From the NCBI GenBank assembly GCA_965242565.1, contig OZ251457.1:1935863-1999862 (forward strand): 64,000 nucleotides of DNA, in the 5' to 3' direction. This stretch comes from Dehalococcoidia bacterium (GTDB lineage: Bacteria; Chloroflexota; Dehalococcoidia; Bin125). Below are positions 6,935-62,965 of the stretch, one piece after another (position 1 is the first letter of the stretch; every line of letters begins with the position of its first letter). The notes beneath the pieces were generated by a model that saw only the letters and a program-made list of their open reading frames with translations, did not search any database and was not told where the DNA came from. Both the position numbers and the translations under genes were made by a program.

Positions 6935-7085
6935 CCCCGTGCTCCACCACTGCCACACCCACGCTCCACCACCGTCACACCCGCGCCCCACCTCCGCCAT
7001 GCCCACGCGCCCCACCTCCGTCATGCCCACGCTCACCATTTCCGTCATACCCGCGCTTGCCGCGGGTATCTCGACGCAACCGCCT
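6935..7085. repeat. Repeat cluster: degenerate tandem copies of 'tccaccNccgNcaNacccgcgc' ending in the intact palindromic module 'tccgtcatacccgcgcttgccgcgggtatctcgacgc'
   Basis: Perfect hairpin tacccgcg-cttg-ccgcgggta. The same module occurs at 27340-27375, 37240-37300, 37420-37455, 44275-44310 and 62840-62880. Confidence 0.6.
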
Positions 7086-24168: not shown

Positions 24169-25662
24169 GTGGCGCAATCGAGAGCATTCGGAACGACGCC
24201 GGCCCCGGAAATCCCCGACGGCCTCACCTGGCTTAACACCGGCCGCGACCTCACCATGGCCGACCTGCACGGGCGGCTCACCATCCTCCACTTCTGGACC
24301 TACGCTTGAATCAACTGCCTGCATGTGCTTCCGCAGTTGCGGAAGCTTGAGCGCCGCTACCCCGACACCGTCCAGGTCGTCTCCGTCCACTCGCCCAAAT
24401 TCCCCACCGAGCGCGAGACCGCCAACCTGCGCCAGGCCGTGCTGCGCCTGCGCATCGAGCACCCCGTGCTCAACGACGCCGACTTCCAGTTCTGGCAGCG
24501 CTACGGCGCGCGCGCCTGGCCCACCATCTTCTTCATCGACCCGCGCGGCAACGTGATCGGTCTGCACGAGGGCGAACTGACCGAGGACATGGCCGCCCCG
24601 CTGATCGACGGCTGGCTCGCCGAGTACCAACAGGAATCCGTGCTCGCTGGTGAGCCTCTCGCCCTGACCCGCGAAACCGGCGCAGAGAGCGCCCTCTCCT
24701 TCCCCGGCAAGGTCGCCTGGGACGACGCGAGCGGGCGGCTGATCGTCGCCGACACCAACAACGACCGCATCCTCGTCGCCGATCTCGAGGGCAACGTCTC
24801 GCTGGTCGTGGGCGGCGCGGGCGCGGGCTTCGAGGACGGTGGCGCGAGCGAGGCCAAGTTCAACCAGCCGCAAGGCGTCGCAATTGACGGCGACGCGATC
24901 TACGTCGCCGACAACGAAAACCACGCCATCCGCCGCATCGATCTGCCGTCGGGCGAAGTGCGAACCATCGCCGGCACCGGCGAGCAGGCGCGGATGATGC
25001 CCTCCGGCGCGCCCGCCGCCCAGACCGCGCTCAGCTCCCCCTGGGATGTCGCCGTGCGTGACGGACAGCTCTACATCGCCATGGCCGGCATCCACCAACT
25101 CTGGTCCATGGACCTGCGCGCCGGCGACTCCGCGACCGTCGCCCCTTGGGCCGGCAGCGGACGCGAGGGCATCGTCGACGGGCCCCGCGAGCAGGCCGAA
25201 CTCGCCCAGCCCAGCGGACTCGCCGTGGGCGAGTCGGGGTTGGCCTTCGCCGACAGCGAATCCAGCGGCGCGCGCGAGGTGACCTGGGACGGCCGCGTCG
25301 AAACCTTCATCGGCAAAATCGGCAGCCTCTTCCACTTCGGCGACGAAGACGGCGCCCGTGAGCGCGCCAAGCTCCAGCACCCGCTCGACCTCGCCTGGCT
25401 CGGCGACGAGCTCTACGTCGCTGACACCTTCAACCACAAAATCAAGCAGGTCTACCCGCGCATGCAGAGCGTCCAGACCGTCCTCGGCGGCCACGGCGAC
25501 GCCCTCGGCGCGTTCTCCGAAACCCAACTCAACGAGCCCGGCGGCCTCTGCGCCGGCCCCGACCGTTCCCTGATCGTCGCCGACACCAACAACCACCGCA
25601 TCGTCCAGCTCGACCTCGCCTCAGCCCGCTCCCGCGAAATCCCCCTCCGCCTCGATCGGTAG
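24169..25662 (+). CDS. Thioredoxin-fold (TlpA/redoxin-like) + NHL-repeat protein with in-frame UGA (Sec) at 24307-24309: candidate selenoprotein (UxxC)
   Basis: GTG 24169 lies 6 nt after the SD 'aaggagg'. The frame reads ...LTWLNTGRDLTMADLHGRLTILHFWTYA-[TGA]-INCLHVLPQLRKLERRYPDTVQVVSVHSP..., which is the WCxxC block of thioredoxin-fold oxidoreductases with TGA at the first Cys. Downstream are four NHL repeats (NNDRILVADLEGN, DNENHAIRRIDL, DTFNHKIKQV, DTNNHRIVQLDL). The ORF track split this gene into a wrong-frame piece (24167..) and 24325... Confidence 0.6.
24327..24346 (+). promoter_or_regulatory. SECIS-like RNA hairpin (8-bp perfect stem gcttccgc/gcggaagc, loop AGUU) starting 20 nt 3' of the UGA
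   Basis: Loop centre is about 28 nt from the UGA, with G-U in the apical loop. This fits bacterial SECIS spacing and loop criteria. Confidence 0.4.
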
Positions 25663-25690
25663 AGTGGGTGATCAGGGGAGGAGTCGAACG

Positions 25691-26719
25691 ATGTCGATCA
25701 GCGATCGCGCCGGCCAGCGGGGCGCGCCCTCGGGGACCGTGGAGGCGACGCCATCGGTGATTGCGTGGGCGCTCGCCGAGTCCGGTATGGACGCGGCGGA
25801 ACTCGCGCGGCGCGTCGGCGTGTCGGAGGGCGAGATCGGCAGCTGGATCGCGGCGGAGAGTCGGCCGCGACGCAACGAGTTTCGCAGGCTCGCCCAAGCG
25901 GTAGGCCGCCCCGAGGCCGTGTTCTTTCTGCCGTCGCCGCCCGCGGAATCGGGCATTCCCCAACAGTTTTGTTCGCTCGGCAAACCGGACCCGATGCTGG
26001 ACCGCCGGTTAGTGCTTGAGATCCGCCGCGCGCGGCGAATTCAGGAGCTGATCAGCTGGATACGCAAGGATGCGGGCCAGCGTCCGGCCTGCTCGTCATC
26101 CTTGCCGCGCCTGCGCGTTGGCGAGGATATCCCAACGGCGGCGGCGGAGCTGCGCCGCTGGCTTGGCCTGCCCGCTGCCGCGCAGGACGACCCGCCCGGT
26201 GCGCCGAATGAGTTTCGCTCGCTGCGCGAGGCATTGGAGCGCAGCGGAGTGATCGTGATGCAACGGCGAGTGGGGGACGAGCAGATTCGGGGTTTCGCCG
26301 TCGCCGACGACCGGGCGCCGCTGATCGTCGTCAACCTCGCGGAAGCCTCACATAAGCGCGCACTCACCCTGATCCACGAGTTGGCTCATCTCGCGTCGGA
26401 ATCTGTTTCGGTCTGCGTTGCGCCGAGCGTCGATCCCGAGCTGCGCGATATCGAAGAATGGTGCGATCTCGTCGCCGCCGACGTCCTGTCGTCTTACAAC
26501 GCGGGAGAGCAGCTGACGACCTCCGGCGACTTGGCTCCGAACGGCGCGGCGGCGCGTCGCATCCACGAGTTCGGCGCGCCGGTCATACAGGTGCTCCATC
26601 ACGCTGAGCAACGGGATCGAATTACGCTCCACGATGTGTTCGATCACCTCGAACTCAACAGCGATGAATGGGACGATCTGCTAAGCGAACTCAAACAGCC
26701 GGAGCACCCGCTTGCCTGA
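25691..26719 (+). CDS. HTH (XRE-like) + ImmA/IrrE family zinc metallopeptidase (DUF955) fusion protein
   Basis: N-terminal HTH (MDAAELARRVGVSEGEIGSWIAAES). C-terminal HExxH (LTLIHELAHLASE). SD ggggaggag 7 nt upstream of ATG 25691. Confidence 0.7.
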   Translation: MSISDRAGQRGAPSGTVEATPSVIAWALAESGMDAAELARRVGVSEGEIGSWIAAESRPRRNEFRRLAQAVGRPEAVFFLPSPPAESGIPQQFCSLGKPDPMLDRRLVLEIRRARRIQELISWIRKDAGQRPACSSSLPRLRVGEDIPTAAAELRRWLGLPAAAQDDPPGAPNEFRSLREALERSGVIVMQRRVGDEQIRGFAVADDRAPLIVVNLAEASHKRALTLIHELAHLASESVSVCVAPSVDPELRDIEEWCDLVAADVLSSYNAGEQLTTSGDLAPNGAAARRIHEFGAPVIQVLHHAEQRDRITLHDVFDHLELNSDEWDDLLSELKQPEHPLA

Positions 26720-27224
26720 TGTCTGGATCTTCGACAGCTCGGGCATTATCGACATCCGCCGTGAGATCCCCGATACGCGAGCAGCCATCCGCCGCGAACT
26801 CCTCGCTCGGATGGCCGCGATGGTGGACGCGGAGGCGCTCTGCTTTCCCCATCAGGTGTACAGCGAACTGACTGCGCAACCGACGGACGACATCTTCGCA
26901 GTGTGGGCGAAACAGGTCCGCCGGGGCATCCGCCGCCACTACGCGCCGCCCGAATCGATAGTGCGCGAAGTGCTTGCGCGACAGCCGCTGCTCGCCGACG
27001 CGAGAAAGCAGACCGTGGACGCGGATCCCTACGTCGTTGCTCAGGCGCTCGCGATTCGGCGAGATGGGTCAAGCGTCGCAATCGTCACCCGGGACTACGT
27101 CGACAGGTTGCCGCACACAACCTCGATCGCAACCGCGTGCGACGATCCGGCAATCGCCGTTCCACACATGCGTTTGCCTGAGTTCTGCGACGCCATCGGC
27201 TTCGATCTGGCGCGCGATCCATAA
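26712..27224 (+). CDS. DUF4411-like (PIN-like) protein, partner of the ImmA/IrrE gene
   Basis: MPDVWIFDSSGIIDIRREIP... The start overlaps the upstream stop by 8 nt. DUF4411 genes classically follow HTH-ImmA genes. The call is from N-terminal pattern and context. Confidence 0.5.
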   Translation: MPDVWIFDSSGIIDIRREIPDTRAAIRRELLARMAAMVDAEALCFPHQVYSELTAQPTDDIFAVWAKQVRRGIRRHYAPPESIVREVLARQPLLADARKQTVDADPYVVAQALAIRRDGSSVAIVTRDYVDRLPHTTSIATACDDPAIAVPHMRLPEFCDAIGFDLARDP

Positions 27225-27289
27225 ACGCTCGATTACCGTCTAGCGCCCAGCTGACGTTGACCGCTGTGAAGCTGTCTGCCTGATCCGCA

Positions 27290-27545
27290 GCCACTCCTCC
27301 CCGTCATACCCGCTCCCACACCTCCGCCCTACTCGCTCCCACCTCCGTCATACCCGCGCTTGCCGCGGGTATCTCGACGCAAACAGCACCATCGTCGCGC
27401 CTCACCACCCCCTCCGCCATCCACGCCCTCGACCAAATCGGCGCGACGGAGAGTTGGGCGACGGAGGCGAAGCGCTGCGCGACAACATACCCTGACCACC
27501 CCCTGCCAAACCTGACCAAAGCCAACCACCTCTGACCAACGCGGC
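27290..27545. repeat. Repeat cluster (palindromic 'tccgtcatacccgcgcttgccgcgggtatctcgacgc' module plus 'aaacctgaccaa/ctctgaccaac' motifs)
   Basis: Same family as 6935-7085 and 3935-4080. Confidence 0.55.
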
Positions 27546-27591
27546 GACTACCTCGAACGCCCGTTCCCTGACATCCGCTACACTGTCCCCC

Positions 27592-30500
27592 ATGCCCGCC
27601 CACGAACACACCATCAACACCGCCCTCGGCGAGGTCCTCCAGGAACTCCGACCCACCAGCTGGAACGTGCGCGCTGAAGAACGCGGAACGCTCCGGAACA
27701 GCGCAAAGCGCCCCGACATCCTGATCCTCGAACCCGCCGGTTGGCCCGTCGTGATCGAAGCCGAGCGCGAGAACTACGCCAGCGCCGAGCAAGACGCCCG
27801 CGCCCGCCTCGGCGAAACCGCCACAGGAGCCAGCGGCCGCATCGAAAGCGCCATCGCGCTCGTCTACCCGCCCGATGTCCGCGAGCAGACGGGCGGCAGA
27901 GCGATTCGCGCCGCGCTGAGAGCGACGGACGCTCTCGAGTACGCCCTCTACAGCGCCACCTCCGTCGATGCCGTCGAGCGCCTCCCCGAATCCGGCTGGC
28001 TGCGCGGCAACGTGCGCGACCTGGCGATGCTCGCCCAGCGCGCCGCCATTCCCGCCCAGCGCGTTGAGCGCCTGGTCGACGCGCTCGAATCCGGTGTGAG
28101 CGCGGCGGCGGGCGAGTTCAACCGCCGGCACCGCTCGCACGGCGTCGGCATCGGGGGAGCCGTCGCCGAGGTGTTGGGCCAGAGCGACGACCAGGCCGGG
28201 CAGACCCGCCTGATGGCGATGACCGTACTGATCAACGCGCTGATCTTCCACGAGTCGCTGGCGCAGGCCGGGCTGGCGCTGGACGACGAGCGGACCGTCG
28301 CGCTCGCGCAGCAGTTCAACTCAACCGCGTCGGGCTTCGATCAGCAGGCGATCATCGCGGAGTGGCGGGCGATCCTGGAGGTCAACTACTGGCCGATCTT
28401 CGCGACCGCCGGCGAGATTCTCCAGCGGCTCCCAATCGCGACCGCGAACGCCGTGCTGCAACCGCTCTGGGAAGCCGCCCGGCAGCTGATCCGCGGCGGC
28501 GTGACCAAGTCGCACGACCTGACCGGCGTGATCTTCCAGCGGTTGATCGCCGATCGCAAGTTTCTCGCCACCTACTACACGCGCCCGGCCGCCGCCGCGC
28601 TGCTGGCCGGCTTGGCGCTGCATCCGCGCGGCGCCTCCGACGGCGCGGGCTGGGGCGACGCGGAGGCGGTCGCCGGTCTCCAGATCGGCGATTTCGCCTG
28701 CGGCACGGGCACGTTGCTGGCGGCCGCCTACCAGCGCGTCTCGCTGCTGCACGAGCTGCACGGCGGCGACCCGCAGGCGCTGCACGCGCCGATGATGCGC
28801 GACGGCCTGGTCGGGCTGGATGTGCTCAACATCGCCGTGCATCTGACCGCCACGATGCTGGCCGGCAGCCATCCCGACACGCCGTTCGACGGCGACTGTC
28901 TGCTCACCATGCCCTACGGCACGCAGAACGGCGACTCGGTCGCGATCGGCTCGCTCGACCTGTTGGCCGCGGAGACGCAGGGCAACCTGATCGACGCCGC
29001 GGTGGCGATGACGGCGGGCGGCCACGCGCCCAAGGAGGTGCCGGACCTCGTCTCGCGGCTCGGACACGGCAAGTTCGACCTGGTGATCATGAATCCGCCG
29101 TTCACCCGCTACACCGGCAACGAGGGCTTCAAGATCGGCGCGGGCAATCCGGCCTTCGGCGCGTTCGAGACGACCGAGCACGACCGCGACCGCATGCGCC
29201 GCGCGTTGCAGCGCTCGCGCGGCGCCGGCACCTTGGGCGGCGGCAACGCCGGGCTGGCGGCGGATTTCCTGGACCTCGCGCTGCGCAAGCTGACCGAGCG
29301 CGGCGCACTGGCGCTGGTGCTGCCGCTGAGTGCGCTCAGCGGGGTGGACTGGCAGGCCGCGCGCGCCGCGCTGCGCAATCAGTTCGACGAGCTGACGGTC
29401 GTCACCGTGGCGGGCGCGAAGTCGGACGACTCGTCGTTCTCCGCCGACACGGGCATGGCCGACTGCCTGATCGTCGCCGCGCGGAGCGGCGCGCAGGCTG
29501 ATCGGCCGCGCGCGGAGCGGGCGCGGTTCATCGTGCTGGACGCGCGGCCGGGCTCCGCGCAGGAAGGCGCGCTGCTGGCCGCCGAGATCCTGCGGGCCGG
29601 CGCGAACGGATCGGTCGCGCGGCTGGAAGACCCGACCAGCAGCACGACGCTGCGGCTCGGCGGCGCGGCCTACGGCTCGATCGTCGACGCGCCGCTGCCG
29701 GACGAAGGCGGTTGGCCGATCGCCGGCGTCGCCGACCTGCAGCTGGCGGCGGCCGCGCACAACCTCGCCGGCTCCGGCGCGTTCCCGCTGCTCTTCCACG
29801 GCGACGACGGTGTGCGCATTCCGGTCGCGCCGCTGGGCGCAATCGCCGAACGCGGTCCGTATCACATGGACATCAAGGGCAAGAACAGCGACGGCACGGC
29901 GCGCGGCCCGTTCAGCATCACCCGCCCGCCGCGCGTGCCTGTGCCAACCTACCCGGTGCTCTGGAGGCACGACGCAAAGCGCGAGCGCACCTTGCAGATC
30001 GAGCCGGACACGCAGGGCGAGGTGATCAACGGCGCGACCGATGAAGAGCGGGCCGCCATTCTGCGCAAGACGCCCGAAGTCTGGGCCAGCGCCACCCGCG
30101 CCCACTACAACCGCGATCTACGGTTCAACTCGCAATCGCTGATCGCCGCGATGACGGAGCGGAAGTGCATCGGCGGGCGCGGCTGGCCGTCCGTGATCTT
30201 CGCGGACACCGCGCACGAGTACGCATTCGCGCTCTGGTGCAACTCCTCGATCGGCTTGCTGATCCACTGGTGGGTCAGCAACAAGACGCAGGCGGGGCGG
30301 GGCTCTACGCCGATCACGAGCATCCCCGCCATCCCAACGCTCGATACCCGCGCGCTGACCGATGCGCAGCACGCCGCCGCCCGCGAAGCGTTCGAAGCGA
30401 TGCGCGAACTCCGCTTCCTCCCGTTCGACCAGATCGACGAGGACCCGGCCCGCGCGGAGCTGGACCGCCGCCTGCTCGTCGACGTCCTCGGCCTGCCAGC

Positions 30501-30642
30501 TTCCCTCTGCGAGGAGGACGGCCCCATTGACCTGCTCCGCCACAAGCTCGCCAGAGAACCCCAAATCCACGGCGGCAAGAAATCCCGCGTCGTCTTCACC
30601 GAAGACGGCGAGAAAACCGAGCGCCGCACCGACCGCGATTAG
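27592..30642 (+). CDS. Fused restriction-modification enzyme, type IIG/IIL-like (N-terminal PD-(D/E)xK-like nuclease + gamma-class N6-adenine methyltransferase + C-terminal putative TRD)
   Basis: N-terminus RPDILILEPAGWPVVIEAERE (D...ExE/K-like). MTase motif I DFACGTGTLLAAAYQ precedes motif IV LVIMNPPFTRY (gamma order, as in MmeI/Eco57I-type enzymes). 1016 aa; no separate S or R gene nearby. Confidence 0.6.
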   Translation: MPAHEHTINTALGEVLQELRPTSWNVRAEERGTLRNSAKRPDILILEPAGWPVVIEAERENYASAEQDARARLGETATGASGRIESAIALVYPPDVREQTGGRAIRAALRATDALEYALYSATSVDAVERLPESGWLRGNVRDLAMLAQRAAIPAQRVERLVDALESGVSAAAGEFNRRHRSHGVGIGGAVAEVLGQSDDQAGQTRLMAMTVLINALIFHESLAQAGLALDDERTVALAQQFNSTASGFDQQAIIAEWRAILEVNYWPIFATAGEILQRLPIATANAVLQPLWEAARQLIRGGVTKSHDLTGVIFQRLIADRKFLATYYTRPAAAALLAGLALHPRGASDGAGWGDAEAVAGLQIGDFACGTGTLLAAAYQRVSLLHELHGGDPQALHAPMMRDGLVGLDVLNIAVHLTATMLAGSHPDTPFDGDCLLTMPYGTQNGDSVAIGSLDLLAAETQGNLIDAAVAMTAGGHAPKEVPDLVSRLGHGKFDLVIMNPPFTRYTGNEGFKIGAGNPAFGAFETTEHDRDRMRRALQRSRGAGTLGGGNAGLAADFLDLALRKLTERGALALVLPLSALSGVDWQAARAALRNQFDELTVVTVAGAKSDDSSFSADTGMADCLIVAARSGAQADRPRAERARFIVLDARPGSAQEGALLAAEILRAGANGSVARLEDPTSSTTLRLGGAAYGSIVDAPLPDEGGWPIAGVADLQLAAAAHNLAGSGAFPLLFHGDDGVRIPVAPLGAIAERGPYHMDIKGKNSDGTARGPFSITRPPRVPVPTYPVLWRHDAKRERTLQIEPDTQGEVINGATDEERAAILRKTPEVWASATRAHYNRDLRFNSQSLIAAMTERKCIGGRGWPSVIFADTAHEYAFALWCNSSIGLLIHWWVSNKTQAGRGSTPITSIPAIPTLDTRALTDAQHAAAREAFEAMRELRFLPFDQIDEDPARAELDRRLLVDVLGLPASLCEEDGPIDLLRHKLAREPQIHGGKKSRVVFTEDGEKTERRTDRD

Positions 30643-32700: not shown

Positions 32701-33861
32701 TCAGAGCGGCTCCGTCCCTTCACTCAGGATGTCCAGATACTCGCCGTAAGCGAAGAGCCGATTGCGGCGCTGGCCTGTGATCTCGCGCACAATGCCGAGC
32801 TCGGCGAGCAGCGCGGTCGCAACAGTGATGGTCGATGCAGCGATGCCTGCGTCCTCTTGAATCGCGGATGCGGAGAGAACGGGGCGTCGTATCAATGCAT
32901 CATGCACCCGCAGCGCCGCCATCGCGCGGCGTCCGGTCTGTTCGATCCGGCTGCGATCAGTGGCGAAGAGCGTCGAGAGTCGACGCGCGCTGCGCACTCC
33001 GTCTTCAGCGGTGATGCGTACGCCCCGGATGAAGAACTCGAGCCAACTCTCCCAATCTCCCAGGGTGCGCAGCTGGCTCAGATGATCGTAGTAGCGAGAT
33101 CGGAGTTCCTTGAAGTAGAGACTGAGGTAGAGGATCGGATCACTGAGGATGCCCGCATCGTGCAGCATCAGCACGATTAGGAGACGCCCGACCCGGCCGT
33201 TGCCGTCGAGGAACGGGTGGATGCTCTCAAACTGCGCGTGGACCAGGCCGGCGCGAACGAGCGCTGGTATACCGTCGTGCGTGTCGTGAATGAAGCGCTC
33301 GAGCGCAGCCATGCAGTCTTCGACTTCCGAGGCCGGCGGCGGCACATAGACAGCACGGCTCGGCCGTGGGCCGCCGATCCAGTTCTGCGAACGACGGAAT
33401 TCCCCCGGCAGCTTCTCGCTGCCCCGACCGGAGCGCAGAAGCACGCGATGCATCTCGCGGATCAGGCGATTGCTCAACGGCAGCCCCTCACGGAGAAGAC
33501 GCCGACCGTGCTCGAGCGCTGCGACGTAGTTGGACACCTCCGTCACATCGTCGATCTGCGCTTCCGGCGTGTGCCCAAGCTCGAACTGGAGGAAGTCGGT
33601 GAGCGACGACTGTGTGCCTTCGATCTGTGAAGAGAGGAGCGCTTCCCGACGCACGTAGGCGTAGAGGAAAAGGTCGCTGTTCGGCAGCTGCCGGGATTCT
33701 GCGTCGAGTCGTCCAAGCGCCACATGCGCCGCCTCCAGGGATTGCAGAAGCCAGTCGAACTCAAGCGGTGGATCCGGCGGCAGCGGTGGTGGAACGAACG
33801 CTCGCACCGTCTCGTCGGCGAAGGTCGTGACGACGTAACGACCCTTGTTCTCGCGTCGCAT
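32701..33861 (-). CDS. Fic family protein (canonical HPFxDGNGRxxR motif) with C-terminal winged-helix
   Basis: HPFLDGNGRVGRLLIVLML is the Fic active-site motif. N-terminal Fic_N-like region (LSSQIEGTQSSLTDFLQFE). Start ATG 33861 (MRRENKGRYVVT...). Confidence 0.75.
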   Translation of the reverse strand: MRRENKGRYVVTTFADETVRAFVPPPLPPDPPLEFDWLLQSLEAAHVALGRLDAESRQLPNSDLFLYAYVRREALLSSQIEGTQSSLTDFLQFELGHTPEAQIDDVTEVSNYVAALEHGRRLLREGLPLSNRLIREMHRVLLRSGRGSEKLPGEFRRSQNWIGGPRPSRAVYVPPPASEVEDCMAALERFIHDTHDGIPALVRAGLVHAQFESIHPFLDGNGRVGRLLIVLMLHDAGILSDPILYLSLYFKELRSRYYDHLSQLRTLGDWESWLEFFIRGVRITAEDGVRSARRLSTLFATDRSRIEQTGRRAMAALRVHDALIRRPVLSASAIQEDAGIAASTITVATALLAELGIVREITGQRRNRLFAYGEYLDILSEGTEPL

Positions 33862-33879
33862 GGCTGATTGCCTCTTTCG

Positions 33880-34060
33880 CGCGAACTTGGAATAGCGGGC
33901 CGCGCTATTTCGCCTACGTCGTGATCTTAGAATAGCACCACGGATTCGTAGGTCGCTATGAAAGAACTTGGAACAACGCGGAACAATGCCGCCCGCTGTT
34001 CCAAGTTTGTCACGTACTTGGAACAGCGGGCGGCATTGTTTTGAGTTGCGAACCTGGCGA
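33880..34060. promoter_or_regulatory. Operator-like repeats upstream of Fic gene
   Basis: '(g)aacttggaa(c/t)agcgggc' appears at 33884 and 34012. Inverted repeat 'cttggaaca-N21-tgttccaag' at 33960-34005. Confidence 0.35.
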
Positions 34061-34149
34061 CCTGTAGACGCCCTTGCTGGTCTGTAGAGCTGCCACGTTG
34101 GGCTACCTATGCCCTCGGTGTGGCAAGGCAACGGATGCGTTGCGCCCCA

Positions 34150-37119: not shown

Positions 37120-37565
37120 TGCTCACACTCCCGCCATTCCCGCCCACATCTCCGTCATACCCGCCGCCCCCTTTTCCCGTCATTCCCGCCCCCGAGCGGG
37201 AATCGGCCCCGATACGCCGCCGCCCCCTCCCGTCATACCCGCGCTTGCCGCGGAGCCTGCCCCTGGCTCGAACAGGGGTATCTCGACGCTAACGCACCAA
37301 ACGCCACGAACCGCCCTCACCTCCCCCGCTCCAGCGCCTCTCCATCGCTCACCCGCCCCTTTTCCCGTCATTCCCGCCCCTGAGCGGAAATCGGCCCCAA
37401 CACCCCACCACACCCCCTCCCGTCATACCCGCGCTTGCCGCGGGTATCCCGACGAGAACAGCACCAACGCCGCATCCCGCCACCTGTCCATCATTCCCGT
37501 CCCTTTTCTCACCATTCCCTTCCCCCCGAGCGAGAATCAGCCTCGGCCTGCGCCAGAGCAACGGC
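37120..37565. repeat. Large repeat cluster (several copies of 'catacccgcgcttgccgcgg...tatc(t/c)cgacg' and 'ttttcccgtcattcccgcccc(c/t)gagcgg(g/a)aatcggcccc' modules; one copy carries an inserted secondary hairpin gcccctggctcgaacagggg)
   Basis: Same family as 300-560 and 6935-7085. Confidence 0.6.
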
Positions 37566-37603: not shown

Positions 37604-40600
37604 TTAACGAACCAGGAGCCCCCAACACCGGACAGTGCCGTCGTCGCGCAGCCCACAGGTGTGTCCGCCACCGGCGCTAACGGCGGCGAAGCGGTCGCTC
37701 GGCGCTTCCGTTTGGCCGGAGCCGTTCGTTCCCCAGCACTCGACAGCACCGCTCTCGCGCAGCCCGCAGGTGTGCCCGCGACCGGCGCTAACGGCGGCGA
37801 AGCGGTCGCTCGGCGCATCCGTTTGGCCGGAGCCGTTCGTTCCCCAGCACTCGACAGCACCGTTCTCGCGCAGCCCGCAGGTGTGCCAGCCACCGGCGCT
37901 AACGGCGGTGAAGCGGCCGCTCGGCGCATCCGTTTGGCCGGAGCCGTTCGTTCCCCAGCACTCGATGGCACCGCTCTCGCGCAGTCCGCAGGTATGGAAG
38001 CTGCCGGCGCTGACGGCGGTGAAGCGGCCGCTCGGCGCGTCAGCCTGTCCTCTATCGCCGGAAGCATAGGGGAGCTCCTCGGCTCCCCAGCACTCGACGG
38101 TGCCATCATAGCGCAGTCCGCAGGTGTGCTGGTCGCCTGCGGTAACGTCTCTGAAGCGTCCGCTAGGTGCGTCTATTTGGCCGAACTCACCGTATCCCCA
38201 GCATTCAACAGTGCCAGTTTCGCGCAGTCCGCAGGCGTGGCTGACAAGCTCGCTTCCATGGTACGAGCCAGTAGAACCAGTGCTGACGGCTATGAACCGC
38301 CCGTCAGGACTGCCGTATTGGGTGTATCCCCAACATTCGACGGTACCATCGTCGCGCAGCCCGCAGGTGCTGGTTGAGCTGGCGCTAATCGCGGAGAAGC
38401 GACGATTTTTAGGTGTGGACTCTCCGTATTCGTTCCGTCCCCAGCATTCGACGGTGCCGTCGTCGCGCAGCCCGCAGGTGTGATGCGTACCGGCGCTGAT
38501 GGCGGTAAACCGGCCACTAGGTGGGTCGGATGTGCCTCCCCAGCATTCGACAGTGCCGTTGTTGCGAAGCCCACAGGTGTGGGACCTACCAGCGCTGATG
38601 GCAGTAAACCGGCCGTTAGGTGAGTCGGATATGGTTCCCCAGCATTCGACAGTGCCGTCGTCGCGCAACCCACAAGTGTGAGAGCCACCCGTGCTGACGG
38701 CGGTGAATTGGCCACCGGGGTCATCGGACTGGCCTGCTCCGTTGCTCCCCCAACATTGAACGGTGCCATCATCGCGCAACCCACAGGTGTGGACGGAGGG
38801 GGTGTCGTCACTCCAAGTACCGGGCTGGCCCCAGCCGGCGCTAATCGCGGTAAATCGTCCTCTCGGCGCGTCGGACTGACCCAGATCGTTGTCTCCCCAG
38901 CATTCGACAGTGCCGTCGTCGCGCAGTCCGCAAGTGTGCCAGGCACCCGAGCTGATCGCGCTGAAGCGGCCGGCCGGAGCGTCGGCCCAGTCGCTGAAGT
39001 CACTTCCCCAGCATTCGACAGTACCGTCGTCGCGCAGTCCGCAAGTGTAGCCGCCGGCGCTGACGGCCTTAAAAGCACCAGGCTGCGGATGTCTCTGTCC
39101 AGAGCTGTTGTTTCCCCAACACTCGATTTCCCCGCTCACGCGCAGCCCGCAGGTGTGCCCACTGCCAGCGCTGACGGCCTGGAACACATCTTCGCCGCCC
39201 GCCAATTCCACACGCAGCTCGAACTCTCCGGTTTGCCCTGCACCGCGATTCGCCACCTCGATCGTGTACAGGCCGGCCTCCATCTCCGCGCGAGCCCAGT
39301 CCGACGCCTCCGTGAAGACGCGCACCGGCTTCGCCGTGCGACTCGTCTCCCGCGAGACGTAGACCGCGGAGCTCTGCTCCGAATCCAGCCCAAGAGTGGC
39401 CTCCTGCGCCTCATCCAGCTCGAACCGGTAGTAGCGCGCATAACTCCCGTCGAGCCGCTGCGACTGGCAGGCATGATTCCAGCGCCCCTTCACCGTGCCC
39501 TCGGTGATATCCCCGCCCCAGCACACCGACGGCGGCACGTCATATGCGACTGTGCCCAGACGCTCCTCGTCGTTGGCGATCAGCACCTTGAAGAACTCGA
39601 CACCACGCTGCACTCCATTCACGAGCTTCTCGCCCACCTTGTAGGCCCCGTACACTTTGATCAGCGCAGCCTTCTTAATCGTGACGCCAGCGTGCTGAGC
39701 GGCAGCGATTATCAGGTCGACCAGCGCTTCGCCCATCTCCGGCGTCAGGAGCACACCCGCCACCGTCTTCAGCGCCGCCTCACGGTTGCCGTTGTCCCAC
39801 TGGTTAAACGCTTGCACGAGGTCCTCGCTGCGCAGCAGTACTGATACCAGGTTGGTCAAGGCGGGTATCGGCACAGCGAAACCGATGACCTCTTCAACCA
39901 TCTCCTTGATCGGTTGGTAGAACACTGTCATGCCCGCCGCGGTCCAGGTCATCTCGGCATTCAACCGAACGGCCCCATCGCGCGTCGGCCGCCAGCTGCC
40001 GACTGCTCCCGGCGCGAGCAGGGTGCCCTCGTGATCGCTCAGCCACTTGTAGAGATCGACCGAAGTAGCGTGCTCAGGGTTGCCCTCAATCGGCCGCACT
40101 TCAAACCAGATGTGGCGCGGATTGCGCGCCAACAGCAGCGGCCCGTCGTCCGTCCGTTGAGCGCACCCTTTCAGGTACACGCCGACGATCCGATCGATGA
40201 GACTGCCGCCGGAGGGGTTGCGAACGGTCACGGTATCGTCGGGCTTCTCGCAGATGATCTGGTCTTTCAGCCCCAACTGCTCCGCTCCCCAATCCACCGT
40301 CCAGGTGATCCCGTCCCAGATGCCCTCCCCAATCGTCGTCACGCCTTCGACTATGTATCCGCCGATGTCTTCGAGGCCCTGGGCGACATCGCCGATCACC
40401 GGAAGACCCTTGACCTTCTTCCAGAAGCTCAGCGAGTCGGTTTGGACGATGATCTGATCGCCCTCGACCGTGAACGGTTCGAGAATCCAGTGTTCGCCGT
40501 TGTAGTGCGCCAGGAACCAGGTTTCGTCTTCGTCGGCCGGCGACGGCAGCGACAACGTCACCGTCCCGGTCAGCTCACCCTCCACCTCGAAGTCCCACGC

Positions 40601-44139: not shown

Positions 44140-44560
44140 CCTCGCCCCTCGCCCCTCGCCCCTCGCTCGATCTACCCATCGCCTCAGTCATGCCCACGTT
44201 TGCGTCTCCGCCGTACCTGTGCCTGCGCTCCTGCGGTACCCGCACTTGCATCCCCGTCATACCCGCGCTTGCACTTCCGTCATACCCGCGCTTGCCGCGG
44301 GTATCTCGCCGTGAGTAGCGCCGATTTCCGTAGCGTCCCCTTATCCCGTCCGGCCCCGCACACACGCACCCACTCGTCGCGCCCGACTTGATCGGGCGCC
44401 CAAACCCGCCCCCGTCCGCAGCACAAGGGATCCGAACCATCCCCGACGTCTGTGCGAGGGCATCTCGGTACGCCGCCCCGCCAGCCGTCGTCGTATGGAT
44501 TCCCGCTCAAGGTGGGAATGACGGAGTGGGGAGGCATGACGGAATAACCATCTCCGCCGG
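44140..44560. repeat. Repeat cluster (palindromic 'ccgtcatacccgcgcttgc(a/c)...' modules and 'gcccgacttgatcgggcgcccaaacccgcccccgtccgcagcacaag' at 44379-44430)
   Basis: Same family. This copy of the hairpin module again has compensatory stem changes (gcgcccga/tcgggcgc). Confidence 0.6.
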
Positions 44561-44585
44561 CAACTGGAGTTTCGCTCTAGAACCC

Positions 44586-44942
44586 CTATGCAGGGGGACT
44601 GCCGCTTCCAGCGGTTGGGCGGTCGGCCGCCCCACCAGCAAGCGTCCTCTCGTGGCGCACCAGCGCCGCTGCCGCAACCGCGCCCGACAACCACGACGCC
44701 CCGATCAGCGCCCACAGACCCGCCTCCAACCCAACCAACCCCCAGACCGCCGCGAAGACCGCCACCGCTCCCTGCACCGCCAGCGCCTCCGCCCGACGCT
44801 CCACCAGCGACGCCGCCAGACAGACCGACAGCGCCAGCCCCGCCGCCGCCGACGCCCACCAGGCGCTCTCCAGCCACGCGACCGCCGCAACGATCGCAAC
44901 CACGGCGGACAGCGCCGCCCACGGACCGATTTGTTTCCACAT
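44586..44942 (-). CDS. Hypothetical membrane protein
   Basis: 118 aa with 3-4 predicted TM helices. No recognisable family; coding status uncertain in high-GC DNA. Confidence 0.3.
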   Translation of the reverse strand: MWKQIGPWAALSAVVAIVAAVAWLESAWWASAAAGLALSVCLAASLVERRAEALAVQGAVAVFAAVWGLVGLEAGLWALIGASWLSGAVAAAALVRHERTLAGGAADRPTAGSGSPPA

Positions 44943-45074
44943 GTCGCCGCCCCAATCGCCCGCAGACTACTCCCCCGCGTGCGCCGTCAAACCCTGCCGC
45001 GCGACAGAACACAGTTACGCGGCGGCTATCGTGCGCAGCGAAGGGGGACGCCGGTGGACGAACGCGAACAACGC

Positions 45075-45989
45075 ATGCGCCTCGCCGCATTCGCCCATGC
45101 CGAGCGGCTCAGCCGCGCCAACGGCGGACTGACCGGCGACCAGCTCAACGCCGGCTTCCCCTTTGAGGGCGAATACATCCCGCTCGTCCGCCGCCAACAG
45201 GGCATCGGCAAGGTCGCCGCCATGCCCCATCTGCTCTCGCTGCGCACCGCTTGGTTGAAGAGCAACTCGATCTACGACGACCAGGCTTTCGCGCACGATC
45301 AGATTGTCTCGAACGACGGAGAAATCACCTACGAATTCATGAAGGGCGGCCCCGACCACCCGCTGAACCAGCACCTCCTCGCCGCGTGCGATCTGGAAAT
45401 CCCCGTGATCTACTTCCTCGCCGTCGCCCAGGGCTTCTATCACGCCTTCATGCCCGTTTGGATCGTCGATTGGTTGCCCCACGCCGGCGAATACGGCCAA
45501 GTCCGTCTCGCTTTCGGGCTGCCCGGCGGCGATCGCCCCGTGCTCGCCGCCGAGCGCCGCGCCGGGCTGGTCGCCGCCCAACGCGGCCTGCGCGGCGCCC
45601 GTTTCCGCGAGCAGGTCGTCCACGCCTACCGCCAGCGCTGCGCCATCTCCGGCGAAGGCGGCGACAGAACCGCCGCCGATCGGCGGCGCGCCCGCCGCCT
45701 GCTCGGCGTCCTCGACCTCAACGGCGAGCGCGCCGAATCCCGCTCGCCCGCCCACGGCCTGCTGCTCGGCAAACTCCACCGCGCCGCCTTCGAGTCCAAT
45801 CTGATCGGCATCGACCCCGACTACCGCGTGCGCGCCTCCCAACGCCTGCTCGCAGAGACCGACGATCCCCTGACGGCCGCCCTGCGCGAGCTCGACGGCG
45901 CCCCGCTACGGCTGCCCAACTACCCTGAGCACCGCCCCGACCGCGACCTGCTCGCCGCCCACTACCACGACTTCCTCCACGCCGATTAG
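45075..45989 (+). CDS. HNH_2-like (restriction-endonuclease-like) domain protein
   Basis: ARFREQVVHAYRQRCAISGE...PAHGLLLGKLHRAAFESNLIGIDPDY resembles the HNH_2 family (F-R-x-x-V-x-x-A-Y...C-A-I-x-G ... L-H-x-A-F-D). The middle segment is atypical. Start ATG 45075 within the longer ORF-track frame. Confidence 0.45.
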   Translation: MRLAAFAHAERLSRANGGLTGDQLNAGFPFEGEYIPLVRRQQGIGKVAAMPHLLSLRTAWLKSNSIYDDQAFAHDQIVSNDGEITYEFMKGGPDHPLNQHLLAACDLEIPVIYFLAVAQGFYHAFMPVWIVDWLPHAGEYGQVRLAFGLPGGDRPVLAAERRAGLVAAQRGLRGARFREQVVHAYRQRCAISGEGGDRTAADRRRARRLLGVLDLNGERAESRSPAHGLLLGKLHRAAFESNLIGIDPDYRVRASQRLLAETDDPLTAALRELDGAPLRLPNYPEHRPDRDLLAAHYHDFLHAD

Positions 45990-47449: not shown

Positions 47450-48799
47450 ATGCGGCTGCCTGAGCCCTCCCCACCCCTGCCGGCCCTGATGCGCGAGTTC
47501 CAGTCGCTCGATCCGGAGCGCCAGGTCCGCCTGATCGACGAGTCGGAAACGCTTGACTCCAAAGGCCGCTACCTGCATTGGGATCAAGTCCGCCGCCGTC
47601 CACCGCCGGACGGACTGTCGCACCGCGCCTGGTGGCTCGGATTTGTTCTCGCGCGTCGCACCGGGCGCCAACGACTGCCGCTGCTCGGCAAGGGCGGCCT
47701 GCCCTTCTGGTTCTGTCACGTTGCGCCGGTGCTGGCGCCGCTGCAACGCCTCGACCGCGAGATGGCGGGCCACATCCTGCTTGACGAGCGCGTCGTCGAC
47801 CGCAGCGATCGCGACCGTTACCTGGTGAGCTCGCTGATGGAGGAGTCGATCCGCTCCAGCCAGCTCGAGGGCGCCAACACGACGCGACTCGCCGCGCGGG
47901 AAATGCTCCGCTCCGGGCGTCGCCCGCGCGATCAGGGCGAGCGAATGATCTTCAACAACTTCGCCGCCATGACCACCGTGGAGCGCTGGGCTCAGGACAG
48001 CCGTGCCGTCACCCCCGACCGCCTGCTCACGCTGCACGAAATCGTGACCCGCGACACCCTCGGCGATCCCGCTGACTCGGGGCGGATCCAGCAGCCCGGC
48101 GAAGCCCGGGTCTCAGTCGTATCCGGCGACGGCTCTGTGGTGCATACGCCGCCGCCCGCTGAAGAGCTGCCGGAGCGGATCGAACGTCTCTGCGCGTTCG
48201 CCGCCGGCGACCTCGACGAGGGCTATCTCCACCCCGCCATCCGCGCCATCCTGCTCCACTTCATGATCGGCTACGACCACCCCTTCGTCGACGGCAACGG
48301 CCGCACCGCCCGCGCCCTCTTCTACTGGAGCCTGTTGCGCTCCGGCTACTGGCTCGCCTCTTATCTCTCGATCTCCAACCTGCTGCGCGCGGCGCCCAGC
48401 AGGTACTCCCGCGCCTATGAGTACGTCCACGCTGATGCCAACGATGCCACCTACTTCCTCATCCACCAGCTGAGCGTGATCGAGCGCGCCGCTGATCAGC
48501 TGCAGGAGTACATCGCCCGGCAGACGCGCCGCGCCGCCGCCGTCGCGCTGGCGCTCAAACAGATCCGCGGCCTCAACAAGCGGCAAGAATTCGTGCTTGA
48601 GCGGGCGCTGCGCCAGCCGGACGCGGAATTCACCGTCGCGGGACACGAGATCGAATATCGGGTCTCCTACGGCAGCGCCCGCTCCGACCTCACCGATCTG
48701 GTTGAGCGCGGCCTGCTGATCCGGCGGCGCAGCGGCAAAAAATTCGTCTTCCGCCCCGCCCCGGACCTCCCCGACCGCCTCGGCGGCGATGCGCGCTAG
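47450..48799 (+). CDS. Fic family protein (second copy; HPFVDGNGRTAR motif)
   Basis: HPFVDGNGRTARALFYWSLL is the Fic motif. N-terminal Fic_N region (SSQLEGANTTRLAAREM). C-terminal winged-helix-like tail. The start may instead be MREFQSL at about 47489. Confidence 0.75.
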   Translation: MRLPEPSPPLPALMREFQSLDPERQVRLIDESETLDSKGRYLHWDQVRRRPPPDGLSHRAWWLGFVLARRTGRQRLPLLGKGGLPFWFCHVAPVLAPLQRLDREMAGHILLDERVVDRSDRDRYLVSSLMEESIRSSQLEGANTTRLAAREMLRSGRRPRDQGERMIFNNFAAMTTVERWAQDSRAVTPDRLLTLHEIVTRDTLGDPADSGRIQQPGEARVSVVSGDGSVVHTPPPAEELPERIERLCAFAAGDLDEGYLHPAIRAILLHFMIGYDHPFVDGNGRTARALFYWSLLRSGYWLASYLSISNLLRAAPSRYSRAYEYVHADANDATYFLIHQLSVIERAADQLQEYIARQTRRAAAVALALKQIRGLNKRQEFVLERALRQPDAEFTVAGHEIEYRVSYGSARSDLTDLVERGLLIRRRSGKKFVFRPAPDLPDRLGGDAR

Positions 48800-48802
48800 C
48801 CT

Positions 48803-49717
48803 GTGGAGGAGGAGGCGCACATGCCGTCGGAACGCGAGGAAGCCGGGCTGCCGCACTATCCCGAACTGCGCTGGGTCACGTTGCAGGCGATGCGCGCCAT
48901 GCCGCTTCCGGCGTCGAACGCGGAGATCAACGAGGCCGTCGCCGACGCGCTTGGCCTGACCGACGAGCAGCGAGCCGTGATGCACTACCAAAGCTCCGGC
49001 ACTCGCCGGACGGAGTTGGAGTATCGCGTCGCTTGGGCGCGGACTGCTCTGCGGGTCGCGGGCGCAATCGACAGCGCCGGTCGCGCCGCGTGGACCGTGA
49101 CGGCTGAAGGCCGCCGAATTCGTCAGGATGTCATCAATCGGCGCTACGAGAGGCATTTGGCCGAACGCGCCGAACAACGCAGGCAGCAACAGGGAGTCGA
49201 CGCGCCAACGCCGCCCGTTGACAACGGGCCCGAATCGCCTGCTGATGTCGATTGGAAAGAGCAACTGCTCGCCCGGTTGGGCGAACTGTCGCCTGCCGGA
49301 TTCGAACGACTCGCTGGCCGTCTGCTCGTCGCGGCGGGATTCCACGATGTCGACGTACTCGGTCAGAGCGGCGACGGTGGGATCGACTGCGTCGGCATGT
49401 ACCGTCTGTCGTTGATCTCGTTCCCAACCTACGTTCAGTGCAAGCGCTATCAAGGATCGGTGAGCGCCGGCATGGTCCGTGATTTGCGCGGCGCGATGGT
49501 CGGTCGCGGAGATCGCGGTCTCCTGATCACCACCGGTACCTTCACCAAAGCCGCTCAATCCGAAGCGACACGCGACGGAGCGCCGCCAATCGAACTGATC
49601 AACGGCGAGGCGCTCTGCGACTTGCTCAAAGAATACGAACTCGGTGTCCGCGCCACGAAGCGCACCGTCGAAGACATCGATATCGAAGACGACTACTTCG
49701 AGAGGCTCGAACCATGA
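48803..49717 (+). CDS. mrr: Mrr-family type IV restriction endonuclease (Mrr_N winged helix + Mrr_cat PD-(D/E)xK)
   Basis: N-terminal Mrr_N-like segment (LRWVTLQAMRAM...INEAVADALGLTDEQRAV...SGTRRTELEYRVAWARTAL). Catalytic segment GQSGDGGIDCVG...YVQCKRYQG. Confidence 0.75.
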   Translation: MEEEAHMPSEREEAGLPHYPELRWVTLQAMRAMPLPASNAEINEAVADALGLTDEQRAVMHYQSSGTRRTELEYRVAWARTALRVAGAIDSAGRAAWTVTAEGRRIRQDVINRRYERHLAERAEQRRQQQGVDAPTPPVDNGPESPADVDWKEQLLARLGELSPAGFERLAGRLLVAAGFHDVDVLGQSGDGGIDCVGMYRLSLISFPTYVQCKRYQGSVSAGMVRDLRGAMVGRGDRGLLITTGTFTKAAQSEATRDGAPPIELINGEALCDLLKEYELGVRATKRTVEDIDIEDDYFERLEP

Positions 49718-62804: not shown

Positions 62805-62965
62805 CCTCTCCTCCCACCCTCACGTCATTCCCGCGCCGAAGAATCCGTCATACCCGCGCTTGCCGCGGGCATCTCGACGTGACCAGCACCCAACCCCCGC
62901 TCCCAAGATTCCGTCGCCCCAGACTTGATCTGGGGCCCAAACCTAACCCCCCTTCGCAGACCATC
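62805..62965. repeat. Repeat cluster ('cgtcattcccgcgcc', palindromic 'ccgtcatacccgcgcttgccgcgggcatctcgacg', and hairpin module 'ccccagacttgatctggggcccaaacctaacccc' at 62917-62962)
   Basis: Same family; sits in a convergent intergenic region. Confidence 0.6.

Follow-up and report, generated by a model that had tools for sequence, protein, structure and literature searches.

Two-gene modules in which a helix-turn-helix (HTH) protein fused to a zinc-peptidase-like domain is encoded next to a PIN-like protein are among the predicted toxin-antitoxin (TA) systems. Matelska et al. (2017, PMC5499597) described such modules, with DUF4411.1 genes downstream of fused HTH-DUF955 (ImmA) genes, as putative three-component TA systems, and an ImmA/RmrA antitoxin hub paired with PIN-like toxins was placed in a defence-enriched zone of the TA network (Ernits et al. 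2023, PMC10440598). A second, separate group of interest here is that of the single-chain type IIG and type IIL restriction-modification (RM) enzymes, for which the solved structures of DrdV (PDB 7LO5), BpuSI (3S1S) and MmeI (5HR4) serve as comparators. In this study, we analysed 64,000 nucleotides of a Dehalococcoidia bacterium genome (contig OZ251457.1, forward strand, positions 1,935,863 to 1,999,862), a stretch with a G+C content of about 69% that we refer to as the window. At positions 25691 to 30642 of the window, an HTH-ImmA/IrrE gene, a DUF4411 gene and a gene for a large predicted nuclease-methyltransferase lie side by side. Both modules are of already known kinds and differ between strains, and the evidence favours their being two independent accessory modules that share a recombination-prone slot.

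Results

The three genes were found on the forward strand: an HTH(XRE)-ImmA/IrrE (M78) fusion gene at 25691 to 26719, encoding a predicted antitoxin or regulator of the RmrA-like kind, a DUF4411 PIN-like gene at 26712 to 27224, encoding a predicted nuclease toxin, and the gene for a 1016-residue single-chain nuclease-methyltransferase of type IIG/IIL architecture and unnamed family at 27592 to 30642. The slot that holds them is bordered by a conserved NHL-repeat gene on one side and a conserved amidohydrolase gene on the other, and it exists in three states. Both modules are present in the window and at the syntenic locus L081, the enzyme alone is present at L003 in the closest genome (OZ251529.1), and the HTH-M78/DUF4411 pair alone is present at L082 to L085, where the DUF4411 stop codon lies about 10 bp from that of the amidohydrolase gene. 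In a blastn comparison and a junction alignment of the window with L003, the flanks are 96% identical at the DNA level up to position 25653, and the adjoining 1.87 kb (25654 to 27521), which contain the ImmA-like gene, the DUF4411 gene and most of the intergenic region, are replaced by 109 bp in L003. A preliminary description of this DNA had proposed that the whole block was inserted as one unit between two gene neighbourhoods. That proposal is ruled out by the pair-only loci L082 to L085 and the enzyme-only locus L003; the expected variability between strains was found, and the three states identify the block as a variable hotspot and not one insertion.

The proteins of the flanking NHL, amidohydrolase, ECH and LLM genes are 94 to 99% identical to those of the window in L081 and L003, and 70 to 88% identical in L082 to L085. 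Among the latter loci, the ImmA-like protein is 42 to 51% identical to that of the window in L082 and 35% identical in L085, and the DUF4411 protein is 56% and 42% identical, respectively. These identities indicate that the pair is old at this position and fast-evolving. The pair was probably lost in L003 and the enzyme cassette gained separately. G+C content at third codon positions (GC3) is 0.76 to 0.77 for the two genes of the pair, with 0.77 for the ImmA-like gene, as against 0.87 to 0.91 for the neighbouring genes; it is 0.91 for the enzyme gene.

We compared 79 loci of the enzyme family from other genomes. An HTH-M78/DUF4411 pair lies within 8 kb of the enzyme in one of them, L045 of a Nitrospiraceae metagenome-assembled genome (MAG), with scores of 46 bits for HTH-M78 and 72.6 bits for DUF4411 and the gene order enzyme, HTH-M78, DUF4411, Schlafen/AlbA_2. 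We take this adjacency to reflect shared residence in defence islands, not membership of an obligate unit. The Schlafen/AlbA_2-domain gene (L045 13220 to 14461, forward strand; Pfam 9.3e-15) directly follows the other three, which suggests a genuine defence island in L045. No partner gene is conserved across the 79 loci, in which only generic metabolic and transport families recur, at inconsistent positions, and the enzyme is therefore a stand-alone gene. The same neighbour search rules out a hidden S, R or BREX-type partner and agrees with the earlier claim that no separate specificity gene exists.

The 367 bp between the two modules contain a sequence that had been noted only as a repeat cluster preceding the large gene. 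The cluster is real (27301 to 27375, forward strand) and consists of degenerate repeats of about 21 nt followed by a hairpin, ATACCCGCG-N5-CGCGGGTAT. It turned out to be one copy of a dispersed element resembling repetitive extragenic palindromic (REP) sequences, built as a GTCATACCCGCG...CGCGGGTATC hairpin preceded by one to three degenerate repeats of 21 to 25 nt. At least seven intergenic sites of the window carry the element, and 31 matches were counted where 9.65 would arise by chance; copies lie at 318-376, 3817, 6974-7072, 16501, 27303-27375, 37154-37450, 44187-44307 and 62824-62858. A copy is also present at the equivalent position in L081. We dropped a CRISPR-like array, an attachment site and an operator as readings of the cluster, since it is one copy of this dispersed hairpin element.

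Downstream of the repeat, a -10-like hexamer, TACACT (27579 to 27584, forward strand), stands 7 nt upstream of the ATG of the enzyme gene, and no Shine-Dalgarno sequence precedes that gene. In 41 of the 77 family loci compared, a TAnnnT hexamer ends exactly 6 or 7 nt ahead of the start codon (background, 0.74 per position), and the loci with this start-abutting hexamer span several phyla. This conservation across family sequences suggests that the enzyme gene has its own conserved promoter and a leaderless mRNA.

The HTH-M78 gene most plausibly starts at the ATG at 25691, which is preceded by a Shine-Dalgarno sequence, GGGAGGAG, at 25676 to 25683; an alternative in-frame GTG lies upstream at 25664. 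That this gene fuses an XRE-type HTH to an ImmA/IrrE HExxH metallopeptidase was confirmed, if narrowly: the protein scores 23.8 bits against Pfam HTH_3 (cut-off 23) and 24.7 bits against Peptidase_M78 (cut-off 22), the latter covering profile positions 2 to 57 of 123. Its HExxH motif, HELAH, at residues 229 to 233 (numbered from the ATG) and a downstream glutamate, E255, are invariant in four orthologues. The M78 match is partial because about 55 residues of the C-terminal subdomain are deleted internally, as seen in an alignment of the window and L081 proteins with the L082 and L085 orthologues; the L045 homologue spans profile positions 4 to 121. Eleven PADLOC models for RmrA, the antitoxin of RosmerTA, match the protein with partial coverage (best E value, 1.7e-11), and the only NCBIfam match is a sub-threshold one to the spr1629 repressor/antitoxin family.

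The DUF4411 gene starts with a TTG at 26712 and overlaps the HTH-M78 gene by 8 nt, as had been proposed. Its product scores 31.5 bits against Pfam DUF4411 (cut-off 23.5) over profile positions 2 to 154 of 159, so that all three domain assignments of the pair stand above their Pfam cut-offs. The four acidic positions that a PIN-like active site should have are kept (D8, E52, D103/D105 and D128). PADLOC gave no match to this protein at E values up to 0.01 and no RmrT model matched, so the PADLOC check succeeded for the antitoxin and did not yield a RosmerTA call. Between the window and L081, the ratio of nonsynonymous to synonymous substitution rates (dN/dS) is 0.12 for DUF4411 and 0.03 to 0.23 for flanking genes; the ImmA-like gene stands at 0.69, with 0.95 over its final third. 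The putative toxin thus appears tightly constrained, and its ImmA-like partner is, on these sequence comparisons, under relaxed or diversifying selection. A sigma-70 promoter scan of the block returned no matches.

The large enzyme consists of five parts. An N-terminal PD-(D/E)xK-fold domain (residues 1 to 150; 27592 to 28041) carries the conserved residues E5, N9, E29, P41-D42, E56-x-E58, E66 and R72. It is followed by a helical connector that forms an HsdM-N-like region (residues 151 to 350, approximately; 28042 to 28641) and by a gamma-class N6-adenine DNA methyltransferase domain (28642 to 29391). The most variable segment of the family (29392 to 30171; roughly residues 521 to 860) overlaps the end of the methyltransferase domain, and a conserved C-terminal domain without a Pfam model (residues 861 to 1016, approximately; 30172 to 30642) completes the protein. 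Motif I, DFACGTGTLL (residues 367 to 376; 28690 to 28719), and motif IV, NPPF (residues 501 to 504; 29092 to 29103), are invariant or nearly so in 72 homologues, and their order, motif I before motif IV, is that of the gamma class, as the preliminary description had stated.

Its further label, an MmeI/Eco57I-like fused RM enzyme, holds for the architecture and not for the family. The Eco57I methylase model (PF07669) gives 18.8 bits against a cut-off of 25.3; among eight divergent family members that we also checked against Pfam, only the one at L063 passes (30.3 bits) and the one at L072 is borderline (25.0 bits), and some family clusters bear a precomputed PF07669 match. MmeI-family membership was rejected: none of the models MmeI_N, MmeI_hel, MmeI_Mtase, MmeI_TRD and MmeI_C matches the window protein or the eight divergent members at an E value up to 0.05, and hhalign of the enzyme with the genuine MmeI-family protein of L080 aligned only 169 columns of the methyltransferase core (probability 18.9%). 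That protein is encoded at L080 5499 to 8381 (reverse strand) in OZ251529.1 by a type IIL gene with Pfam matches to MmeI_N, MmeI_hel and MmeI_Mtase. The gene is the second neighbour of the L001 paralogue of the large enzyme, separated from it by gatB, and these genomes therefore hold several unrelated single-chain RM-type genes. The PADLOC matches of the enzyme are a weak partial one to mad2 (E value, 1.5e-8) and weak ones to MTase_II. A permissive Pfam scan of the N-terminal 350 and the C-terminal 426 residues alone gave nothing meaningful, and neither Pfam nor NCBIfam has a model for the nuclease or C-terminal domains of the family.

Sequence and profile searches of the PDB gave marginal motif-level matches only (motif I of BrxX, E value 0.21), and the classification of the enzyme therefore rests on its predicted structure. 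A full-length AlphaFold2 model (predicted local distance difference test score [pLDDT], 74.9; predicted template modelling score, 0.71) has type IIL DrdV as its top Foldseek match (E value, 1.9e-10; about 710 columns), followed by BpuSI (type IIG), LlaBIII (type ISP), PacII, BrxX/PglX and type I HsdM. Modelled alone, the N-terminal 176 residues (pLDDT, 88.8) adopt the alpha-beta-beta-beta-alpha-beta core of PD-(D/E)xK nucleases, with D42 at the start of strand 2, E56-x-E58 in strand 3 and E5 in helix 1. The segment PDILILEP...IEAERE, in which a PD-(D/E)xK-like region had been suspected, falls inside this confidently modelled fold, although the motif itself reads ExE. E5, N9, E29, D42, E56, E58, E66 and R72 are conserved in the 72 homologues down to 38% identity, so the acidic residues sought in the large protein are present. 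The canonical lysine position is occupied by glutamate in 67 of the 72, by aspartate in three and by lysine in one. We consider the predicted nuclease site best written as PD-x13-ExE, not ExK, with cleavage a predicted but not an assured property.

Of the five segments, that of residues 521 to 860, approximately, is the least conserved, with a median pairwise identity of 0.42 and 27 to 55% identity to the L003 allele; the C-terminal 150 residues or so are well conserved. By analogy with its position in DrdV and BpuSI, the variable segment is presumed to be the target-recognition region. As far as sequence and predicted structure tell, the enzyme resembles a type IIG/IIL single-chain RM enzyme composed of nuclease, connector, gamma-class methyltransferase and a long variable C-terminal part.

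The family to which it belongs is large and uniformly built. A word-indexed search returned 3,316 matches, the best 120 of which share 56% identity or more along almost their entire length. From 1.84 billion cluster representatives, searched exhaustively with a profile, came at least 1,515 clusters (50% identity) at E values up to 1e-30. Nearly all of the top 150 clusters from the profile search contain proteins of about 950 to 1030 residues that cover the full profile. Where the sources name these proteins at all, they call them "hypothetical protein." Members are concentrated in MAGs of Dehalococcoidia and other Chloroflexota, with up to three paralogues per genome, and occur also in Alphaproteobacteria, Nitrospiraceae, Acidobacteria, Poribacteria and Gammaproteobacteria. 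The family stands apart from the lineages of MmeI and BpuSI, and its relation to the Eco57I methylase domain is marginal at best.

The alleles of the enzyme at the syntenic locus are mosaic. Despite near-identical flanks, the window enzyme is only 66% identical to the alleles of L003 and L081, which are 96% identical to each other. Its first 160 and last 130 residues or so match those two alleles at 90 to 100%, and residues 120 to 880, approximately, match at 95 to 100% the L001 paralogue, which occupies another locus between gatB and a metallophosphoesterase gene. OZ251529.1 has three distinct alleles of the enzyme, at L001, L002 and L003. A cluster look-up identified P0281 as identical to the window enzyme and located a second copy, P0279, on the same 3,259,939-bp contig. 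P0279 differs from the window enzyme at 39 positions, all within residues 4 to 83 and 891 to 1013, and at none of the 807 residues from 84 to 890 (27841 to 30261 in the window, forward strand), as compared at the protein level. This pattern is best explained, at that level, by a recent gene conversion within the 3.26-Mb genome that would have overwritten the locus-specific allele with the core of a paralogue. A similar pair, P0278 and P0283, is present on another contig of 3.23 Mb.

Other features of the neighbourhood were recorded alongside the block. A Fic/DOC gene at 32701 to 34131 (reverse strand) matches the PADLOC SoFic model at 2e-117 and falls under the NCBIfam SoFic cut-off (152 against 550 bits); translation probably begins some 90 codons past the listed TTG. 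This allele is only 65% identical to the L003 and L081 copies, in flanks that are 96 to 98% identical, and it makes a third variable gene in the same neighbourhood, where L082 and L084 have two tandem Fic genes. About 17 kb downstream lies a second small cluster of the defence type (44388 to 45989, 47450 to 48799 and 48803 to 49717, forward strand), with genes for a protein that has an HNH domain (PADLOC HNH, 1.2e-13), for another Fic-like protein (SoFic, 4.7e-36) and for a methyl-directed restriction enzyme of type IV that resembles Mrr (mREase_IV, 4e-31; PDC-S02, 2.8e-32). Two tandem repeats, one of 111 nt in 3.6 copies with 93% identity (37644 to 38038) and one of 99 nt in 2.8 copies with 81% identity (38438 to 38715), sit among long overlapping open reading frames (ORFs). 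In every syntenic locus, a conserved small ORF of 46 codons is called directly before the NHL-repeat gene (3260 to 3409 in L082 to L085; 5458 to 5598, forward strand, in L081), and its equivalent in the window lies at about 24170 to 24320.

Discussion

The core of the earlier reading, a pair of genes next to a single-chain nuclease-methyltransferase, holds, and the reading as a whole is partly supported. We infer all biochemical activities of both modules, and any role in defence, from sequence. In the model that we favour, with a fair margin left for doubt, the block comprises two independent accessory modules side by side in a recombination-prone slot. The first would be a bicistronic, translationally coupled HTH-M78 and DUF4411 operon of the RosmerTA-like, "three-component" TA type. 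The HTH-peptidase would repress the operon, neutralise the PIN-like nuclease or do both, until a trigger, for example phage infection or DNA damage, inactivated or cleaved it; the freed nuclease would then arrest growth. The second module would be an enzyme of type IIG/IIL architecture that stands alone and whose gene is transcribed from a leaderless-type promoter of its own. Its C-terminal part would recognise a specific DNA sequence, the gamma-class domain would methylate adenine there and so mark self DNA, and the N-terminal PD-ExE domain would cut unmodified DNA nearby. Homologous recombination among the several paralogues of a genome would exchange or homogenise the specificity regions.

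Several observations weigh against parts of this model. PADLOC would not call RosmerTA, since no RmrT model matches the DUF4411 protein. The pair starts only 28 nt past the NHL gene and the promoter scan found nothing in the block. With its truncated M78 domain and elevated dN/dS, especially in the last third, the ImmA-like gene may be losing the antitoxin or protease function that its sequence predicts. In the enzyme, the replacement of the canonical lysine by glutamate may have altered the predicted cleavage activity or abolished it, and no model or fold match marks the C-terminal region as a target-recognition domain. Finally, the pair lies beside a family member in L045, an unrelated Nitrospiraceae MAG, which leaves some room for a functional link between the modules.

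That link, in its strongest form, would make the three genes one system, in which the HTH-M78 protein controls the RM-like enzyme much as a C-protein or an anti-repressor would, or in which the PIN-like toxin acts as an abortive-infection back-up when restriction fails. Such a system would fit the window and L081, where the three genes are neighbours that share a strand, as well as the independent adjacency in L045. We nevertheless regard it as highly improbable. Each module stands alone in the same slot in close relatives, the pair accompanies only the one family locus from another genome, and there the order is reversed, with the pair downstream of the enzyme; the enzyme has its own conserved -10 box, and the REP-like element lies in the spacer between the modules. 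An explanation that concerns the pair alone, and to which we allow a modest chance, is that it has long resided in the chromosome as an addiction or regulatory cassette, is now in slow decay in this lineage and does not serve as an active anti-phage defence. Its presence in the same slot where flanking proteins are only 70 to 88% identical, the internal deletion in the M78 domain of the window and L081, the dN/dS of the ImmA-like gene and the loss of the whole pair in L003 would all be expected of such a cassette. The strong purifying selection on DUF4411 and its intact catalytic acids would not, nor would the retention of HExxH and HTH in the ImmA-like protein and of two intact, translationally coupled ORFs, and fast-evolving antitoxin or sensor partners are common among defence TAs.

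For the enzyme, the glutamate at the lysine position raises the question of whether the protein is effectively an orphan DNA methyltransferase that works as an epigenetic or regulatory enzyme or survives from a lost system as its modification half, the N-terminal domain being catalytically inactive or put to another use, for example in DNA binding or oligomerisation. The native composition of its gene (GC3, 0.91) and the high full-length conservation of the family, unusual for fast-evolving RM genes, speak for this possibility, and the endonuclease activity is a prediction from sequence. We consider it unlikely all the same. Conservation of E5, E29, D42, E56, E58 and E66 across phyla, down to 38% identity, argues for a metal-binding active site, and nucleases of the BamHI type use glutamate at the lysine position. 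A genome can have up to three divergent paralogues, and alleles have replaced one another at a syntenic locus within flanks of 96 to 99% identity, a pattern typical of the turnover of defence specificities and not of a housekeeping methylase. A bolder proposition combines two claims: that the family is a major unnamed nuclease-methyltransferase clade whose non-canonical PD-ExE site makes it act unlike classical type IIG/IIL enzymes, and that its adjacency to HTH-M78/DUF4411 pairs, seen twice independently (in this lineage and in the Nitrospiraceae MAG), reflects a genuine coupling in function, for example through a PIN-toxin back-up or a peptidase-controlled switch, beyond mere co-location in defence islands. 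We think this proposition, taken as a whole, very unlikely.

The locus could be useful in three ways. The sister genomes form a natural experiment, in which flanks 94 to 99% identical enclose different alleles at one locus and a converted tract of 807 residues. A comparison of methylomes could map the part of the enzyme that sets specificity and show how gene conversion removes or duplicates a specificity. If this large, uniformly built family had a name, the annotation of RM and defence genes in Chloroflexota and other phyla would benefit. The mechanism of ImmA/DUF4411 modules is poorly understood, and the slot offers a syntenic series of orthologues with and without an intact M78 domain.

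Comparison with known systems

The literature treats the HTH-ImmA/DUF4411 pairing as a predicted TA or defence module, in line with its earlier characterisation as a recurring module. The pairing itself is not new, and the pair of the window, judged by its sequence, adds to the described HTH-DUF955/DUF4411 (RosmerTA-like) kind of TA system. It shares with the systems of Matelska et al. a fused HTH-M78 gene upstream of, and overlapping, a DUF4411 gene with four conserved acidic residues, and the same arrangement, with DUF4411 directly downstream of HTH-M78, is found in L081 to L085 and L045. With RosmerTA it shares a first protein that matches the RmrA models of PADLOC and differs in its DUF4411 protein, which matches no RmrT model; it is thus RosmerTA-like by its antitoxin only. 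It departs from both in having an M78 domain with an internal deletion. Its position, 28 nt past a conserved chromosomal gene and syntenic across divergent Dehalococcoidia, is not the typical one in a mobile island.

PglX and HsdM lack an N-terminal PD-(D/E)xK nuclease domain. The large enzyme has structural similarity to PglX of BREX, but neither BREX nor type I partner genes are conserved near it, which sets it apart from PglX/BrxX and from type I HsdM alike. A weak partial match to mad2 recalls MADS, but here too conserved neighbours are missing. The nuclease of BpuSI uses E21, D60, E76 and K78 (PMC3185434). E5, D42, E56 and E58 of the large enzyme parallel these four residues in position, and the predicted site differs from that of BpuSI in having E58 where BpuSI has K78.

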